Shown one piece after another: positions 55,559 through 64,000 of a stretch of DNA of 64,000 bases (within the stretch, counting starts at the first letter, position 1; each line of letters opens with the position of its first letter). The notes below the pieces were generated by a model. The model was given only the letters and a program-made list of their open reading frames with translations, was not told where the DNA came from and searched no databases. Made by a program: the position numbers and the translations under genes. Source of the stretch: a virus; IMG/VR virus record IMGVR_UViG_3300035670_010555, positions 64,001 through 128,000 of that record, one strand, 5' to 3'.

Positions 55559-56302
55559 TCAGTCTTCCAATTTTCTCTCAATAGAAAGTTCTTTATCGAG
55601 AGCTTTATTTGACATATCAAACAATCTTTCAATGTGACCTGATCTTCTTAAAAACTTAAAAACCAAGTTTTCATATGAAAGTTCACCCTCTTTTTCCAAC
55701 CCTGATTTTCTATAATTTTTCAATTTTTCTTTAATCGAATCTATCAACTTAATATCATCTTCCGAACTTTCAGATTCAATTACTTTATCAATTTTTTCAG
55801 TCCAATTTTTGATTTTCTTTTCCAAAACTGATTTATCAATTTCATTTTCTAACTGTTTAGGTTTTGTTACCCACTCATCATTCATCACTGAATAAACACC
55901 TGTTGCGAAATGTGGCTCTTCATTATCTTGTGCATATAATTCAACATCATATCCAAATATTTTAATGTCGTGTTTGTCGTTGAATACTTGTTTCTTTAGA
56001 TTATATAATTCTTTATACAATGTTGCTTCGTCTTCGAATTGTTGTAAATCTACTAAAATGTGCAAATCAAAATCAGAATATTCTGACCAATTAAAATTTG
56101 CCAACGAACCAGTCAAAACGATATCTTCAACAAAAACCTCTTCACCAAGATAATCGATGAATTTTTCAGCAATCTTCAATAAAGCGTTTTTCACCTTAGG
56201 AACCATTGTTGCTTTCTGTGGGTTCTCAGGATTCTCCCAAATTTTTGGATTGAGAGTTTCTTGTACTGAAAAACTATTAAGGATTTTTTGAAAATTATTC
56301 AT
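55559..56302 (-). CDS. Pol-beta superfamily nucleotidyltransferase
   Basis: LTGSLANFNWSEYSDFDLHI (GS...DxD) plus VELY. Confidence 0.75.
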   Translation of the reverse strand: MNNFQKILNSFSVQETLNPKIWENPENPQKATMVPKVKNALLKIAEKFIDYLGEEVFVEDIVLTGSLANFNWSEYSDFDLHILVDLQQFEDEATLYKELYNLKKQVFNDKHDIKIFGYDVELYAQDNEEPHFATGVYSVMNDEWVTKPKQLENEIDKSVLEKKIKNWTEKIDKVIESESSEDDIKLIDSIKEKLKNYRKSGLEKEGELSYENLVFKFLRRSGHIERLFDMSNKALDKELSIERKLED

Positions 56303-56313
56303 CTAGATAAATA

Positions 56314-56556
56314 CTATAATTTCTTATACTTGAATGTCTTTGATATGTCCGTAGTAAAAAATTTTCCTTGCGACTCCGACATTCTGAATTTTGTATACAC
56401 TTGGTGAGGGACATCATCATACTCATATTTGAACCCGTTATTAAATTCTACTACAAGTTTTTTCGTTTCCGTGTCGTATTCTGTTTTTTTAATGTTGGAA
56501 GATTTTATTTCATTAATAATCTTCGTCCCCTGAATCTCTTCTTTCAGTATTGCCAT
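56314..56556 (-). CDS. KTSC domain protein
   Basis: SSNI....YD.....L.VEF.NG..Y.Y..VP..VY......S.GKFF. Confidence 0.9.
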   Translation of the reverse strand: MAILKEEIQGTKIINEIKSSNIKKTEYDTETKKLVVEFNNGFKYEYDDVPHQVYTKFRMSESQGKFFTTDISKTFKYKKL

Positions 56557-56926: not shown

Positions 56927-57298
56927 TTACTTCAACTTCTTGAGTTGGTCTCGGATTTCAATCGATTTTTCAAAATTTTGTTCTTCGATTGATTTTTTAA
57001 GTTCCTCTTCAAGTTTGTCGATTTCCTTTTGGTTAGATTCCAATTTCTTGATTTGGTCTCTTAGTTCAACCGCCCTTTCAAAATCTTCATTTTCGATTGC
57101 AATTTCAAGTTGTTGTTTCAAATTTTTTGAAGTTGGGTTTGTTTTAGTGTTGTCGTAGTAATACGTAGTTATTTTCATTGTCCCATCTTCTGAAACTTTA
57201 GTTTGAGTTTTCCACTCACCGTTATTTGGGGTTAATTGTGTGAACATTTCATCGAATGCTCTAAAGATGTCATTATAAGATCTTCTGTTACCAAACAT
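56927..57298 (-). CDS. Small protein with two tandem UVR (UvrB/UvrC) motifs
   Basis: AIENEDFERAVELRDQI and SIEEQNFEKSIEIRDQL. Confidence 0.85.
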   Translation of the reverse strand: MFGNRRSYNDIFRAFDEMFTQLTPNNGEWKTQTKVSEDGTMKITTYYYDNTKTNPTSKNLKQQLEIAIENEDFERAVELRDQIKKLESNQKEIDKLEEELKKSIEEQNFEKSIEIRDQLKKLK

Positions 57299-57475: not shown

Positions 57476-59488
57476 ATGAACGACTTAATGGACGACGAAG
57501 ACAAAATGATGAGTAAAAAACAGAAGTCAGGAGATACCTCGACACCTGTGCTAGACAATTTCAGTAGAGACTTGAATAAACTTGCAGAGGCGGGTAAATT
57601 GGACCCTGTCATCGGAAGAGACCGAGAGATTCTACGAATCGCTCAAATTCTTTCCCGAAGAAAGAAAAATAACCCAATTATTCTTGGTGAACCTGGTTGT
57701 GGTAAGACCGCAATCGTTGAAGGTTTGGCAATGAAAATTGTTAATGGTGATTGTCCTCGTAATCTCTTGGATAAGAGATTGGTTAACCTTGACCTAACTT
57801 CAGTTGTTGCCGGTACAAAGTATCGTGGACAATTTGAAGAAAGAATGAAGGTTATCATTGAAGAACTTCAAGCTAATCCTAACATCATCGTATTCATTGA
57901 TGAGATTCATACGTTGGTTGGTTCAGGTAATTCCTCAGGTTCGATGGATGGTTCCAACATTTTCAAACCAGCATTGGCACGTGGTGAACTACAAGTAATC
58001 GGTGCAACCACTTTGGATGAATTCAGAAAGAACATCGAAAAAGATGGGGCATTGGAACGTAGATTCCAAAAAGTCATTGTTGACCCATCTACAGTGACTG
58101 AGACAATCCAAATTTTGAAAAATGTTCGGGACAAATACGAAACATATCACAAAGTGACTTATTCCGATGAAGTCATTGAAACTTGTGTTAAGTTGGCGGA
58201 TAGATATATCACCGACCGTGAATTCCCTGACAAAGCATTCGACATCTTGGATGAAGTTGGAGCTAGAATGCAAACCGAACTTAAGGTTCCCGAAGCAATC
58301 GAAGAGTTGAAGCGTAAGGCTGCAGAGCTGAAACAACAGAAGTTGGATGTAGTTAAAAAACAGAATTACGAACAAGCGGCACAACTCAGAGACAAGGAAA
58401 AAAAGTTGTTGGACAAATTGGAACAAGAAAAACAAAAGTTCGAGGAACAAATGTCCAAAGACAAACAAAAGGTCGGAATGGATGATGTTTATGATGTTGT
58501 TTCAAACATGACTAAAATCCCTGTTAACAAAATGTCTACAGATGATACCAAAGCGTTGTTGAACTTAGATAAACACATTGTTGGAACTGTCATTGGTCAG
58601 GATGCTGCGGTCATCAAGGTTGCAAAATCTATCAAGAGAAACCGACTTGGTATCAAAGATCCAAATCGTCCGATTGGTTCATTCGTTTTCTTGGGTTCAA
58701 CTGGTGTTGGTAAAACTCACCTTGCAAAACAACTTGCAAAAGAAATGTTTGGAAGTGAGGACGCACTAATCCGTGTGGATATGTCTGAGTACCAAGAGAA
58801 ACACACCGTATCCAAATTAGTTGGAGCTCCTCCAGGCTATGTTGGATATGAAGAAGGTGGGTTGTTGACTGAGAAAGTTAAGAACAAACCTTACTCTGTT
58901 ATCTTGTTCGATGAGGTTGAGAAAGCTCACAAGGACGTATTCACGGTGTTACTACAAATCTTGGACGATGGTCACGTTACAGATAGTTTGGGTAGAAAGA
59001 TTAATTTCAAAAACACTTTGATTATCTTAACATCAAATCTTGGAGTTAAAAAACTACAGGACTTCGGGACTGGTATTGGATTCTCAAATAATACCTATAG
59101 TAACGAAGAAGCGAAGAAAGATATCTTGATGAAAGAAATGAAAAATTTCTTTTCTCCTGAGTTTATTAATCGTATCGATGACACCATCGTTTTCAATTCT
59201 CTATCTCAAGAGGATATCAAGAAAATCACTGACATCGAACTTAAGAAGTTGATGAATCGTCTTGACGAAATGAAGTATAAGATTACTTATGATGAATCAC
59301 TTTTGAATTACCTATCAAAAATCGGATATGATGAGGTATACGGTGCAAGACCACTCAAGAGAGCGATTCAGGATAAAGTTGAAGACTTATTATCTGAAGA
59401 AGTTCTGACCGACAAAATTATCGTAGGAAAAACCTACGTGATTAAAGTCGAAGATGAAGTAGTCAAAGTAGTCAAGAAAGGTCGGTAA
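57476..59488 (+). CDS. clpC: ClpC-type AAA+ unfoldase lacking the N-terminal Clp-repeat domain
   Basis: [23 protein letters not shown]-type M-domain, [20 protein letters not shown] ClpP-binding loop, GARPL. Confidence 0.9.
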
Positions 59489-59491
59489 ATT

Positions 59492-59518
59492 AAAAAGGGG
59501 AGAAATCCCCTTTTTTTT
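59492..59518 (+). terminator. Intrinsic terminator
   Basis: AAAAAGGGGA-gaaa-TCCCCTTTTTTTT. Confidence 0.85.
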
Positions 59519-59530
59519 ATATTTATAATC

Positions 59531-60139
59531 ATGAGTAATTTCTCCCGACTGTTAGACAAATTCAAAAATTCATTTCCAGAAGATTTACAATCAAAAGTTG
59601 ATGTAATTGAAAATTACGTGGCAAACTACATCCAAGAAAATAACATCAATGTAAAATTTTTGAATTCTTGTAATGCGGGATTCAAAGGAGTTAGAACAAG
59701 AGACCAAATTATTATTTGTTCTCCTTTTGGTATGGAAACCATAGGGGATTTTTTATATACCATATTTCACGAAATTAGGCATGAACAGCAGATTAGAGAT
59801 TTGAAAATGTTAAATCCTTTAACGGATTTTGATTTAGAGGATTTCGAGGCTCTTTACGAACAATACTGGAATATGGAGTTGGATGCCGACAAATTCGCAA
59901 AAGAAATGGTGGCAAAACTGGTAATCAAATTGGGGATTCCAATCGACATTGCGAAAAAATTATTTTCGTTATCACTATACGTTCAGCAATATCCAACCAT
60001 GTCAAACATGGTTCGTGGAGGGATTCAACAAATTATTAACGACATTAAGAGAATAAAAAAATCGGGTGGAGAATATACTGACATTCAAGACCACCCGGTA
60101 GTACAAAGACACATAGATAAGTTAGAAGATTTTATTTAA
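59531..60139 (+). CDS. Putative HExxH zinc metallopeptidase
   Basis: IFHEIRHEQQ...MELDADKFA. Confidence 0.65.
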   Translation: MSNFSRLLDKFKNSFPEDLQSKVDVIENYVANYIQENNINVKFLNSCNAGFKGVRTRDQIIICSPFGMETIGDFLYTIFHEIRHEQQIRDLKMLNPLTDFDLEDFEALYEQYWNMELDADKFAKEMVAKLVIKLGIPIDIAKKLFSLSLYVQQYPTMSNMVRGGIQQIINDIKRIKKSGGEYTDIQDHPVVQRHIDKLEDFI

Positions 60140-60973
60140 TCAAAACGGATGAAACTGTCCTCTTGGTACTGACTTTTTGAAATGTAATTTATAACCCAAC
60201 TCTTCAATCATTTTTCTTCCCATTTCTATACCGTTGAATACGTCCTCGATGATTACATATTCTTCAGGACTATGATAATCATAATAACCAATAGAAAAAT
60301 TAATACAAGAAAAATCGAATTTACTTCTCAAAGCATAAACGTCAGTATATGGGTGAACCATATATCGCATTTGTTCGGTAATCATTCCTTCAGTCAAAAC
60401 TTTATCAATTTTTTCGAAGAACTCGGTACCTCTGTCGAATAACACTTGCCCAAAACATGTCTCAGTAATCATCCAATTTTCCGGAGCATCGAACTGAATA
60501 CCATATCCAACATTTTCAAAAAATTTGGAATCGGCCGCTTTTGAACCATGGCATCCAGTTTCTTCTGAAACAAAGAATGCTGCTTTAAGGTATGGTAATT
60601 CTTTTAGTAAAGTTAAACAAGCAAACACTCCACACTTATCGTCTCCTCCAATACCTGTCGGCATCTCGTTATCATTGAATGCCTTTAACGCTGGTTTCAA
60701 TTCCCCTTGAGCGTTTTTTAACATCATTTCTTTAACGTTGATTGTATCAATATGGTGAACTGTATCGGTATGCGATATTACACAAGGAAAATAAAAATCT
60801 TCGGGAAGTTCAGTTGTTTCTTTTTTGGTTGCGTAGATATTCATTTTGTCATCAACATAATGTTCTATATTGTTTTCGGTTAACCAATTAACCAAAAATT
60901 CAACCATACGATGTTCTTGGTAAGTTTTTGTGGGTACGCTCAAAACTTCTTTGAGTAACGTTATATCTTTCAT
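60140..60973 (-). CDS. M28/M20/M42-clan metallopeptidase
   Basis: SHTDTV, GGDDKCG, SEETG, FD, YH...E. Confidence 0.8.
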   Translation of the reverse strand: MKDITLLKEVLSVPTKTYQEHRMVEFLVNWLTENNIEHYVDDKMNIYATKKETTELPEDFYFPCVISHTDTVHHIDTINVKEMMLKNAQGELKPALKAFNDNEMPTGIGGDDKCGVFACLTLLKELPYLKAAFFVSEETGCHGSKAADSKFFENVGYGIQFDAPENWMITETCFGQVLFDRGTEFFEKIDKVLTEGMITEQMRYMVHPYTDVYALRSKFDFSCINFSIGYYDYHSPEEYVIIEDVFNGIEMGRKMIEELGYKLHFKKSVPRGQFHPF

Positions 60974-60993: not shown

Positions 60994-62037
60994 TTAGATT
61001 TCATCCAAACTAAATAATGAAGGTTGGTATAATAAATTGTAAAAATTTTGTTCACTCATTAATATACTTTTTTGCTTCAATCCCTTTGATAATGTTACCA
61101 CCACTTTCATCTCAGGAAACTTAAATCCTTCAATTTTGAACCTTGTTTCTTTTTTGGGGTCTTTTGGTAAAAAGTAGTATTCTTCTTGTCTGAATTTTTT
61201 CAAAATTCTAGAAGTCATGTCAGTGAAATCTTTGAAGCTAACTCCTTCCTCTTCTCCATCTTCCTGAATCGTATCCAAAATTTCAGTAAAAATTGTGTTT
61301 GCGGTTCTATTGAAACTTGCAGAATCAAAATCATCAGGGTCTTGGTATGCATAATAATCTTCTTGCCAACCACCTGGTGCTTGCTTTCTACCAAAAATTC
61401 TTTCTAATAATTCTTTCGAAGAAATGTGAAGGTCACCCTCGTTAATATATAATGCTATCAAGTCCGCCACCGTAATTCTAAATCCATCTGTATAAGCGTC
61501 GATACCCAACTCATCGAAATACTCATCCATCTCTTTATTCATCGCGGTCGAAAGAGATCTTTGGAACGCGTGATTTTTTTCGTAGACATAATCTTCGATG
61601 ACATACTTTATTTTTTTTCCAAAATTATCCATCAATACTCGGGATAACTCTTTTCTGTATTCGTCATCTGAAAAGTCGACTTTCATGGGAAGTATTGCTC
61701 TAGAAATTTCAGATAATATTTGTTTATTTTCGTCATCTAAAGTATAGTAAAAACTATACCCTTCCATAAAATCTTCTGTGGAGGAATAATGGTCTATAAA
61801 TTCATAATCGTTATACGGGGAATTAATCACTTGATAAAACCAAACATCATCTTCCGATAATCCCAACGCCTCTAAAAATTCTTGTTGATTTTTGAACTCA
61901 ACACTTATAACACTTTGACCTGGCGTATTTCGGTCCTCTCTCATGTACGAGAATAAATCATCCGAAGATAATAATTCATCTTTAGTTATTTTTCTTTTAG
62001 CATAATTCCTTAATGATCTGAAAGTTTCGTAATTCAT
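60994..62037 (-). CDS. Hypothetical acidic protein
   Basis: Start at MNYETF (62037) preferred; TATTTATT upstream. Confidence 0.6.
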   Translation of the reverse strand: MNYETFRSLRNYAKRKITKDELLSSDDLFSYMREDRNTPGQSVISVEFKNQQEFLEALGLSEDDVWFYQVINSPYNDYEFIDHYSSTEDFMEGYSFYYTLDDENKQILSEISRAILPMKVDFSDDEYRKELSRVLMDNFGKKIKYVIEDYVYEKNHAFQRSLSTAMNKEMDEYFDELGIDAYTDGFRITVADLIALYINEGDLHISSKELLERIFGRKQAPGGWQEDYYAYQDPDDFDSASFNRTANTIFTEILDTIQEDGEEEGVSFKDFTDMTSRILKKFRQEEYYFLPKDPKKETRFKIEGFKFPEMKVVVTLSKGLKQKSILMSEQNFYNLLYQPSLFSLDEI

Positions 62038-62060
62038 ACTACAAATAAATATCAATTCTG

Positions 62061-62091
62061 TTGGATTTGGAAATATTTATACATACATTTG
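62061..62091 (+). promoter_or_regulatory. tmRNA promoter(s): TTG-N20-TACATTTG plus embedded TATTTATA
   Basis: TTG 62061-63, TATTTATA 62074-81, TACATTTG 62084-91. Confidence 0.6.
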
Positions 62092-62100
62092 TAAAACAAT

Positions 62101-62514
62101 GGGGTAGACAGGTATCGATTGGCATTGTTGGGGATAAGTGGCACGTAGTCAGAATTCATCTATGACTTAAATCTATGGTGAAGAAAGTAAACGGCAATAC
62201 TCTTGCTAAGATGTCTGCTCTAGGTTTAACTAGAGAAGCGTCTGTTGTAACTGCTTAATTAGTTGATACAACGTCAGGTCGAATGGGCATATAACCTAGG
62301 AACAGAAGCCCTCTAAGGTGTGATACCACCCGAAGCGTATCGAAGGTCACGTTCAGAGGACTACCTTAGTATAAGTGAACTCGACACAGTTGTTGGTAAC
62401 GATGTCAAAATAGGAACCAAATATTTCGGAAGGTATAACAAACCTTGACCTAAACGTGTAGTCATTTATTGTCAAGGTGAGCAAGACCGGAGTTCGACTC
62501 TCCGCTACTCCACC
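62101..62514 (+). ncRNA. ssrA: tmRNA (phage-encoded)
   Basis: 5' GGGGTAG pairs with CTACTCC-A (G3:U alanine identity pair); T-arm CGGAG-TTCGACT-CTCCG; tag ORF 62193-62258 GNTLAKMSALGLTREASVVTA*. Confidence 0.9.
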
Positions 62515-62520
62515 TTCAAC

Positions 62521-62549
62521 AAAAAAGGGAGTCAATAACTCCCTTTTTT
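62521..62549 (+). terminator. Intrinsic terminator after tmRNA
   Basis: AAAAAAGGGAGT-caata-ACTCCCTTTTTT. Confidence 0.85.
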
Positions 62550-62757: not shown

Positions 62758-64000
62758 ATGAAAAAAAATCTATTACAAGGGGTTTTATCATTCTTGGTTT
62801 TACTGATGTCGTTTGGACTGACGTATTCTCAAGGGGTAACAACATCAAACATTTCAGGTAAAGTTGCAACCGATACGGGTGAGACATTACCAGGGGCGTT
62901 AGTACTAGCTACTCACACTCCATCGGGAACAAAATATTCTACAGTCACTAATAATGAAGGAAGATATTTAATTCCAAACACAAGGATTGGTGGTCCTTAC
63001 ACAATCACTGTATCATTCATAGGATATAGTACATCATCTACTGATGGAGTATTTTTATCTTTGGGTGTTACTTCAAATATCAATATCCAACTTAAGTCAG
63101 AAGATATTGGTATTGCGGAAGTACTTGTAATGGGAGATAAAAATCCAGTATTTAGCTCCGATAGAACTGGTGCGTCTTCTGCAATTACAAATCAAAACTT
63201 AACTAGATTACCAACCATTTCAAGAAGTATCAATGATTTTACAAGGTTATCACCACAAGCATCAGGTAACTCTTTTGCAGGACAGGATGGTAGATTGAAT
63301 AATATTACTGTTGATGGTTCTTATTTTAACAACTCATTCGGTTTGGGTTCAGGTTCTAATCCAGGTGGTAGAACAGGTGTATCTCCAATCTCTTTGGATG
63401 CTATTGACCAAATCTCAATTAACGTAGCACCTTATGATGTAAGACAAGGTAACTTCGTTGGTGCTGGTGTAAACACAGTAACTCGTTCGGGTACTAACGA
63501 ACTATCTGGTTCGGTTTATGGGTTTAGTAGAAACAACAATTTAGTTGGAACTGAAGCAGGTGAAAAGAAATTTAATCCTGGGCAATTTGATTACAAACAA
63601 TTCGGTTTCCGTTTAGGTGGACCAATCATTAAGGATAAATTATTCTTCTTTGGTTCATTTGAAGATGAAAAAACTACTCAACCAGGAACTACTTTTAGAG
63701 CAAACAAAGGTGGAGAACCTGCGTCTGGTAATGTTACAAGAGTATTGGCTTCTGATTTAGACCAATTGAGTTCATTCTTAAAAACCAAATATGGATATGA
63801 GACAGGACCTTATCAGGGATACGATAACACTACCGCAGCTACCAAGTTTTTGGGTAAGATTGACTGGAACATTAGTGATAAAAACAAATTTAGTTTAAGA
63901 TATACACATTTGGACTCTAATACCGATGTTCTTGCATCTGGTTCATCTTCATTAGGTTTTGGTGGAAGAAACTTTAACCTTAACGCACTTAACTTCCAAA
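62758..64000 (+). CDS. Partial Oar-like TonB-dependent receptor with carboxypeptidase-regulatory-like N-domain (runs off right edge)
   Basis: Not in ORF track. MKKNLLQGVLSFLVLLMSFGLTYSQGVTTS signal peptide, LPGA...GGPY...SFIGY, plug NNITVDGSYFNNSFGL...PISLDAI...APYDVRQGNF.GAGVN.VTRSGTN. Confidence 0.88.
   Translation, partial: MKKNLLQGVLSFLVLLMSFGLTYSQGVTTSNISGKVATDTGETLPGALVLATHTPSGTKYSTVTNNEGRYLIPNTRIGGPYTITVSFIGYSTSSTDGVFLSLGVTSNINIQLKSEDIGIAEVLVMGDKNPVFSSDRTGASSAITNQNLTRLPTISRSINDFTRLSPQASGNSFAGQDGRLNNITVDGSYFNNSFGLGSGSNPGGRTGVSPISLDAIDQISINVAPYDVRQGNFVGAGVNTVTRSGTNELSGSVYGFSRNNNLVGTEAGEKKFNPGQFDYKQFGFRLGGPIIKDKLFFFGSFEDEKTTQPGTTFRANKGGEPASGNVTRVLASDLDQLSSFLKTKYGYETGPYQGYDNTTAATKFLGKIDWNISDKNKFSLRYTHLDSNTDVLASGSSSLGFGGRNFNLNALNFQ

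Follow-up and report, generated by a model that had tools for sequence, protein, structure and literature searches.

The 64,000-nucleotide (nt) stretch of viral DNA analyzed here (the window; bases 64001-128000 of IMG/VR record IMGVR_UViG_3300035670_010555, a virus contig of 169,854 bases) carries a one-piece transfer-messenger RNA (tmRNA) gene at positions 62101-62514 on the plus strand. The gene is predicted to be a functional tmRNA encoded by the phage itself, and its predicted tag of 21 residues is well supported and clade-specific. We favor, with a probability of about 0.6, the explanation that this tmRNA supplements ribosome rescue and is not part of a sealed orthogonal circuit; a ClpC-type unfoldase without N-domain, encoded upstream, is a candidate tag reader only. 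Positions are those of the window unless the record is named.

A conserved tmRNA gene and its flanking signals

Relatives of the gene were gathered in two sets. Set 1 comprised 80 related viral loci fetched with the ClpC protein as bait, and set 2 comprised 80 further viral loci obtained independently of ClpC with a degenerate helix-2/T-arm pattern. A search with the Rfam model RF00023 (gathering score 47 bits) returned a match over the full model (1-374) at 62101-62515 on the plus strand, with 73.1 bits and an E value of 1.6e-26; the relatives scored 92-129 bits. ARAGORN with its threshold lowered to 95% or 80% placed the tmRNA at 62101-62514 and a tag frame at 62193-62258, encoding the peptide GNTLAKMSALGLTREASVVTA followed by a stop. 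The two programs, which an earlier note made from the sequence alone had proposed as a check, bore out the coordinates and length it had given, Rfam with a full-length call and ARAGORN only below its default threshold.

The same note had described an intact tRNA-like domain, and every part of one was found. The acceptor stem is formed by GGGGTAG and CTACTCC, and G62103 faces T62509 within it as a G3:U70 pair, the alanine identity pair. The domain has no anticodon arm. The T-arm (CGGAG-TTCGACT-CTCCG), the 3′ acceptor strand CTACTCC, which pairs with 62101-62107, and the discriminator base A62512 lie at 62488-62512 on the plus strand. The 3′ end reads ACCT; the CC is encoded and the terminal A of CCA is not, so that this A must be added.

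The anatomy was conserved throughout the family. All 87 parsed relatives had a 7-bp acceptor stem, the G3:U70 pair and the discriminator A, with 17 stem variants and compensatory changes. An RNAalifold consensus of 32 diverse members, a fold that does not model pseudoknots, contained 40 pairs, 31 of them with compensatory double changes. Most of these changes affected the long helix 2 or the T-arm, and most pairs of helix 2, which joins the 5′ and 3′ parts, were doubly compensated. Pseudoknot 1 (PK1) aligned to RF00023 with some non-standard pairs.

Two promoter-like elements of the Bacteroidota type precede the gene on the plus strand, TTTG at 62058-62061 and TAcaTTTG at 62084-62091, the latter ending 9 nt before the mature 5′ end. 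In 73 of 87 relatives, the 60 nt preceding the tmRNA contained TAnnTTTG, which we take to be the Bacteroides-type -7 promoter element, compared with 4% of random 60-nt windows. The element suggests that the host is one of the Bacteroidota and that its unmodified polymerase transcribes the gene. On the 3′ side, an intrinsic terminator (GGGAGT-CAATA-ACTCCC, then six T) can be read at 62527-62549 on the plus strand; the consensus terminator scan did not list it, though it is plain in the sequence. In many relatives (e.g., L008, L045, L110 and L148) a near-identical leader, GTTCTTTGAAAATAT, stands directly before the mature 5′ G. It is distinct from TAnnTTTG, which lies farther upstream, and might serve in processing or as another promoter element.

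A long tag shared across the family

The tag reading frame occupies 62193-62258 on the plus strand, with the predicted resume codon GGC at 62193-62195, 21 codons and the stop TAA at 62256-62258. ARAGORN and the Rfam consensus alignment coincided on GGC 62193, which is nt 93 of the tmRNA. The two alternative frames end after 9 and 4 codons and neither gives a canonical tag; a canonical tag in another frame was what the earlier note had named as speaking against its reading. All 130 homologues from both sets whose tag region lay on the fetched DNA encoded the same tag family, indicating that the frame is not a chance one and upholding the resume codon and the 21-residue tag of that note. Compared with a canonical ClpX-type degron (~8-14 residues, ending [LVMF]-A-A), the window tag is too long at 21 residues and ends in V-T-A.

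The family comprised 78 distinct peptides of 20-22 residues with the consensus G-N-[VT]-[LFI]-x-[KN]-[ML]-x-x-[LVI]-G-L-[ITVL]-[RAK]-x-[ED]-x-V-x-[VTAG]-A. Most began with GN (58), and the others with GE, GD, GK or DN/DA. The last residue was Ala in 75 of the 78 variants, Ile in two and Ser in one; endings included TVA, VAA, AVA, VVA, VGA and VTA, and x-A-A endings occurred in 15 of the 78 (VAA in 11, YAA in 4). The internal residues K6, G11 and L12 were the most conserved of the tag, more so than the C-terminal three. In set 1, the column entropy summed per codon position 1/2/3 was 20.2/14.0/27.4, and the invariant Leu12 was written with both CTN and TTR codons, indicating selection on the tag peptide. 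The tag is best described as a putative clade-specific degron of two conserved parts, a core of K/N-M/L-x-x-L/V/I-G-L and a hydrophobic-x-Ala C-terminus. Conservation of the internal core suggests an additional reader, for example an adaptor.

The frame is also fixed within the RNA. The resume codon of the family was GGN or GAY, always starting with G, and lay at nt 90-96 in 86 of the 87 parsed members. In all 87, the stop codon of the long frame was inside a hairpin, the usual helix-5 position; in the window this hairpin (GTTGTA ... TACAAC) spans 62244-62272 on the plus strand.

ARAGORN at its default setting called 13 of 63 family tmRNA stretches (L004-L083). Five of these 13 calls were mis-tagged, four from an internal Ala codon (e.g., AEEATVVA) and one from another region. 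Surveys of phage tmRNAs by default ARAGORN would thus undercount and mis-tag this family.

Phage origin of the gene and its association with ClpC

The source record is a piece of a ~300-kb T4-like jumbo phage, a genome size that follows from its length and an estimated completeness of 56%. The tmRNA clade as a whole is a large group of ~300-kb T4-like jumbo phages infecting Bacteroidota. This tmRNA and the gene order around it were shared by more than 100 viral contigs. Some of the relatives are complete genomes (309-321 kb, with direct terminal repeats in two), and the shared synteny indicates that the gene belongs to the phage and does not represent a host ssrA flanking a prophage. Three complete relatives differ in their accessory genes: ClpP was present and SmpB not found in one of 321 kb (G001), both were present in that of 309 kb (G002), and a second of 321 kb (G003) had SmpB, with ClpP not found. 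The window tmRNA gave no match to GenBank phages with blastn in distant mode, and the exact 26-nt pattern of its 3′ end gave none among viral contigs. The source record also holds 17 tRNA genes in a single minus-strand array (record positions 132966-142203), which sits 6-16 kb past the tmRNA, downstream of the window.

The order ClpC, peptidase, orf347 (a 347-residue protein), tmRNA was conserved among related loci, and all records of sufficient length had ClpC upstream of the tmRNA. With the window tmRNA as query, nhmmer found a homologue 2-7 kb downstream of ClpC and on the same strand in 61 of the 80 bait loci. Nearly all loci without a match end within ~3 kb of ClpC; one (L072) has more room, and its contig ends just past the orf347 homologue. 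In the ClpC-independent set, ClpC was present in 43 of 50 records, all 43 paired with the tmRNA. Four of the seven records without ClpC had the family tag and are uninformative because their contigs run for at most 2.9 kb from the tmRNA toward ClpC, and the remaining three are different phages with different tmRNAs. Genes of opposite orientation lie between the tmRNA and ClpC, and each of the two forms a transcription unit of its own. Their co-occurrence lies in one clade with conserved gene order and may reflect shared descent; as all informative records carry both, a correlation of tag with ClpC would be confounded by it.

Unrelated phage tmRNAs that share the helix pattern (L099, L126, L130 and L143) also had long tags. 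One tag of 33 residues ended in AEVVA, in a 66%-complete record in which no Clp ATPase was found. The 25-residue tag ALAGTSRSLTGTKTRSLTGTFALAA, ending in FALAA, came from records 79% and 46% complete, again with no Clp ATPase found. A 360-kb phage had the 24-residue tag GNIENNKNFFANSVMSVAGEVAVA, and the ClpC frame of this phage could hold an N-domain. Phage tmRNAs in general may tend toward long tags.

The phage ClpC lacks the N-terminal domain

The ClpC-type double-ring AAA+ unfoldase is encoded at 57476-59488 on the plus strand (670 residues), and a terminator at 59492-59515 was called by the consensus scan. Pfam domains AAA_2, AAA_lid_9, ClpB_D2-small, AAA and UVR were identified. The protein matched phrog_4871 from profile position 157 onward and aligned to Staphylococcus aureus ClpC residues 151-794 with an E value of 2.4e-220. 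Both Walker A/B pairs, the pore loops KYRG and GYVG, and IGF at the position of the ClpP-docking tripeptide are present, and a Tyr occupies the position of F436, an M-domain contact residue. These features were conserved in 78-80 of 80 relatives, with an IGF/VGF loop in 79 of 80.

The N-terminal Clp_N repeat domain, the site for adaptors and phospho-arginine, is absent. The frame, which opens at 57476 and is preceded by an intergenic region, leaves no room for it, and the open frames of the relatives encode 668-720 residues. The claim that a ClpC without N-domain lies 2.6 kb upstream of the tmRNA thus stood, its start corresponding to about residue 151 of the S. aureus protein. A phage ClpP (PF00574, 187 bits) is encoded at record positions 143701-144228, 17 kb downstream of the tmRNA and outside the window.

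Divergent from ClpC, at 56927-57298 on the minus strand, is the gene for a 123-residue tandem-UVR protein (PF02151 in two stretches, E 1.3e-15), which tblastn detected in 40 of 81 related loci. UVR motifs form the ClpC M-domain, and so this protein is a candidate M-domain partner that might release M-domain repression of ClpC. No SspB-, ClpS- or MecA-like adaptor was seen among the neighbors examined, which is an absence of matches and not proof.

Comparison with cellular and phage systems

The helix-2/T-arm pattern occurred in at least 120 stretches of prokaryote genomes, of which 80 were returned as loci, mostly from Bacteroidota, with some from Verrucomicrobiota, Acidobacteriota and others. 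Their tags, as predicted by ARAGORN, were mostly short and canonical: GENNYALAA was the commonest (15), GNNYAFAA, GENNYAMAA, ADSNELALAA and similar tags also occurred, and a minority were longer or odd. Most began with Gly, as the earlier note had stated for Bacteroidota tags. No phage-like tag was found among the 80 cellular loci, and nhmmer with the phage tmRNA matched none of the 80 cellular tmRNAs.

The phage tmRNA resembles those of Bacteroidota in its alanine-identity stem, T-arm, long helix 2, G-starting resume codon near nt 90 and helix-5 stop. It shares the helix-2 signature CTAAACGTGTAG with many of them, and its tag likewise has Gly followed by Asn, Glu or Asp. It differs in being carried by a virus and in a sequence too diverged for nhmmer to link the two. 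Its tags are also longer, at 20-22 residues as against 8-10, and have an internal K/N..GL core and an end of the V-x-A type, whereas host tags have a constant C-terminus ending in LAA, MAA or FAA. Long non-canonical tags of at least 20 residues occur in Mycoplasma, where they are read by Lon and not by ClpXP, and in Chlamydia; unlike those cellular tags, the phage tag is viral, and it is unrelated to them in sequence.

Phage tmRNAs have been reported in the mycobacteriophage Bxz1 group and Bacillus phage G (PMC4131195), and huge phages carry tmRNA together with SmpB (PMC7162821). In a survey of 18,146 phage genomes, 2.3% had a tmRNA; recycling of host proteins was speculated, and a two-piece tmRNA of the Melnitz type was described (PMC9004378). 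The present tmRNA is like these in its carriage by large phages and in an SmpB that is sometimes phage-encoded. The roles proposed for published phage tmRNAs are sustaining the hijacked translation apparatus or recycling host proteins. The published papers list genes or discuss origin; in the literature searched we found no account of a conserved clade-specific tag family or of a fixed neighborhood with a Clp unfoldase or N-domain-less ClpC.

A close parallel may be drawn with Bacillus megaphage G, which combines a tmRNA with the tag AKLNITNNELQVA, a phage ClpP and a phage ClpX (PMC12484599). Both are giant phages with their own tmRNA and Clp protease, and the phage G tag also ends in Val-Ala. 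However, that tag is unrelated to the present one in sequence and length, and the unfoldase of phage G is ClpX, the classical SsrA reader, in place of an N-domain-less ClpC.

For such a ClpC, an engineered counterpart has been described. The part of Hsp100 proteins that reads the SsrA degron is the pore, not the N-domain, and S. aureus ClpC deprived of its N-domain needs no adaptor to bind ClpP (Jenne et al, 2025, PMC12583610). When the M-domain contacts were broken, this protein degraded GFP-SsrA as well as MecA-activated ClpC did (PMC12583610). The phage protein is like it in its start (equivalent to ~151), M-domain, contact aromatic, pore loops and ClpP loop. The engineered form was active only with the M-domain contact residue mutated, whereas the phage protein keeps its Tyr. 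By analogy, the phage ClpC may be held in ring dimers until released, perhaps by the tandem-UVR protein.

Proposed role of the tmRNA and alternative explanations

In the explanation that we favor, the tmRNA would be transcribed as its own unit between the host-type TAnnTTTG element and the intrinsic terminator, both of which are seen in the sequence. The 5′ end of the precursor would be trimmed by RNase P, and the terminal A would come from the CCA-adding enzyme. Host alanyl-tRNA synthetase would charge the molecule via G3:U70, and SmpB, the host's in this case and the phage's own in some complete relatives, would bring it to stalled ribosomes. Translation would resume at GGC 62193, add Ala plus 21 residues and stop at the UAA in the helix 5 loop. 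This predicted course of rescue follows from the conserved anatomy. The likely benefit would be extra ribosome rescue during infection, when decay of host messages or nuclease-type defenses could produce non-stop messages. The most likely destination of tagged products is AAA+ proteases able to thread a non-polar C-terminal tail. Among the readers of the tag would be the N-domain-less phage ClpC, working with ClpP of phage or host, and probably also proteases of the host, and the tagged fragments could then be recycled.

Several observations weigh against this explanation. ARAGORN at its default threshold found nothing in the window or in the fetched locus, and the PK2-PK4 region aligned poorly to RF00023, with large insertions. 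The assignment of the resume codon to GGC 62193 comes from consensus and conservation. Nei-Gojobori pN/pS (nonsynonymous over synonymous proportions) in the three frames was 0.645, 0.641 and 0.878, so that the tag frame and the +1 frame could not be told apart (0.645 vs. 0.641), the sequences being short and saturated. No SmpB was found in the 56%-complete source record. The M-domain contact aromatic, Tyr or Phe, was kept in the ClpC of all 80 relatives, so that the phage ClpC may need an unknown activator. In the engineered system, N-domain-less ClpC with this aromatic intact was proteolytically inactive (PMC12583610).

The earlier note had gone further and proposed that tagged products are rerouted away from host ClpXP. 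Such a private circuit, in which host ClpXP misses the tag and phage ClpC reads it with ClpP, perhaps together with the tandem-UVR protein, would let the phage steer the fate of rescued products apart from host quality control. It is plausible by analogy with the engineered N-domain-less ClpC, which can degrade SsrA substrates through its pore (PMC12583610). The pairing of all 43 ClpC-carrying records of the independent set with the tmRNA, the retained gene order, the ClpP loop kept in 79 of 80 relatives together with a phage ClpP, and a tag most conserved internally (K6, G11, L12), where host tags are conserved at the C-terminus, all agree with it. However, the association lies in one syntenic clade and could be explained by shared descent alone, and the two genes form distinct units, split by genes that run in the opposite direction. 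The phage ClpC shares the canonical pore loops KYRG and GYVG with cellular ClpC, so no altered specificity is visible. With its hydrophobic-x-Ala end the tag looks like ssrA degrons in general, and VAA closes 11 of 78 variants, so that exclusion of host proteases is not obvious. In one complete relative of 321 kb no ClpP was found, and other phage tmRNAs with long tags stand in record fragments (46-79% complete) in which no Clp ATPase was found. The rerouting is thus unsupported, and we consider a private circuit unlikely. A related proposal makes the tag a two-part, phage-private degron, in which a phage factor, for example the tandem-UVR protein or the M-domain of ClpC, would bind the invariant internal core K-M/L-x-x-L-G-L and hand tagged host fragments on to ClpC-ClpP and the neighboring peptidases. 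It would amount to a virus-run pathway of rescue and recycling insulated from host ClpXP, and it too appears doubtful.

Rescue itself might instead be the function, the phage needing ribosome recycling, and the tag not mainly a degron. Its core might then bind some phage factor, serve to sequester or mark host fragments, or reflect constraints that translation on the ribosome places on the message-like domain. In several bacteria, ribosome release and not tagging is the essential activity of tmRNA. The greater conservation of internal residues over the last three fits this idea, as do the two variants ending in Ile and the one in Ser, and since helix 5 pairing constrains the last codons, the C-terminal pattern could be partly RNA-driven. 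Yet the last residue is Ala in 75 of 78 variants, after Val or Thr-rich hydrophobic residues, which is a hallmark of degrons; genes for proteolysis (ClpC, two peptidases and ClpP) surround or accompany the tmRNA; and the synonymous switching at Leu12 argues for selection on the peptide and not on the RNA alone. We regard this alternative as distinctly improbable. Least probable by far is that the gene has no phage function, being a host ssrA picked up at the edge of a prophage or of an assembly, a decaying copy or a decoy for SmpB. tmRNA genes are common integration sites, a gene for a Bacteroidota-style outer-membrane receptor lies directly downstream, and the default ARAGORN score rejects the gene. 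Against this stand the place of the tmRNA in a phage gene order kept by over 100 viral contigs, some of them complete genomes with terminal repeats, the failure of nhmmer to reach any of the 80 cellular tmRNAs, and a receptor gene that is phage-borne in five relatives as well. Every functional element is also conserved, with compensatory changes. A host ssrA at a prophage boundary was rejected on the synteny in complete phage genomes.

Phage tmRNAs have long been catalogued without a tested function, and this clade offers an unusually clean handle: 78 natural tag variants, an invariant core, hosts with a very different 9-residue tag, and ClpC, ClpP and peptidases nearby. Why a virus carries its own trans-translation thereby becomes a question directly testable by tag fusions.

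Other genes of the neighborhood

Between ClpC and the tmRNA lie three further genes. A 202-residue protein (orf202) is encoded at 59531-60139 on the plus strand and contains an invariant HEIRH (HExxH) motif. It was found in 24 of 81 loci, in closer relatives only, with many invariant residues across 19 relatives. An AlphaFold2 model (predicted local distance difference test, pLDDT, 79) gave weak Foldseek matches to IrrE, CapP, selecase and SprT-type metalloproteases, all with E > 0.1. The protein is probably a small zinc peptidase, to judge from the invariant motif, and could be assigned to no family. The next gene, at 60140-60973 on the minus strand, encodes an M42/M20-like exopeptidase of 277 residues, which matched phrog_4191 ("peptidase") with an E value of 1.5e-32, gave weak Pfam M42/M20 and NCBIfam PepT-like matches, and was present in 76 of 81 loci.

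orf347, the divergent neighbor of the tmRNA (60994-62037, minus strand), was conserved in 56 of 81 loci and gave no Pfam, PHROG or NCBIfam match. Its AlphaFold2 model (pLDDT 90; predicted template modeling score 0.77) had no fold match in the PDB (Foldseek E > 0.03, VIA-align Z ≤ 4.8) and no atlas match, and according to this model the protein may have a new fold.

Downstream of the tmRNA, a gene for a TonB-dependent-receptor-like outer-membrane protein with CarboxypepD_reg and β-barrel domains begins at 62758 on the plus strand and runs through 64000 and past the window. Homologues with 46-75% identity stand at the same place in five related phage contigs, indicating that the gene is phage-borne and not host flank.

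Upstream of ClpC, the minus-strand region 55559-56556 encodes a 247-residue nucleotidyltransferase-fold protein (PF01909, phrog_36119) and an 80-residue KTSC-domain protein, both conserved there in 75-77 of 81 related loci. As the terminal A of the tmRNA is unencoded, a possible role of the nucleotidyltransferase-fold protein in adding nucleotides to the 3′ end is worth a look.

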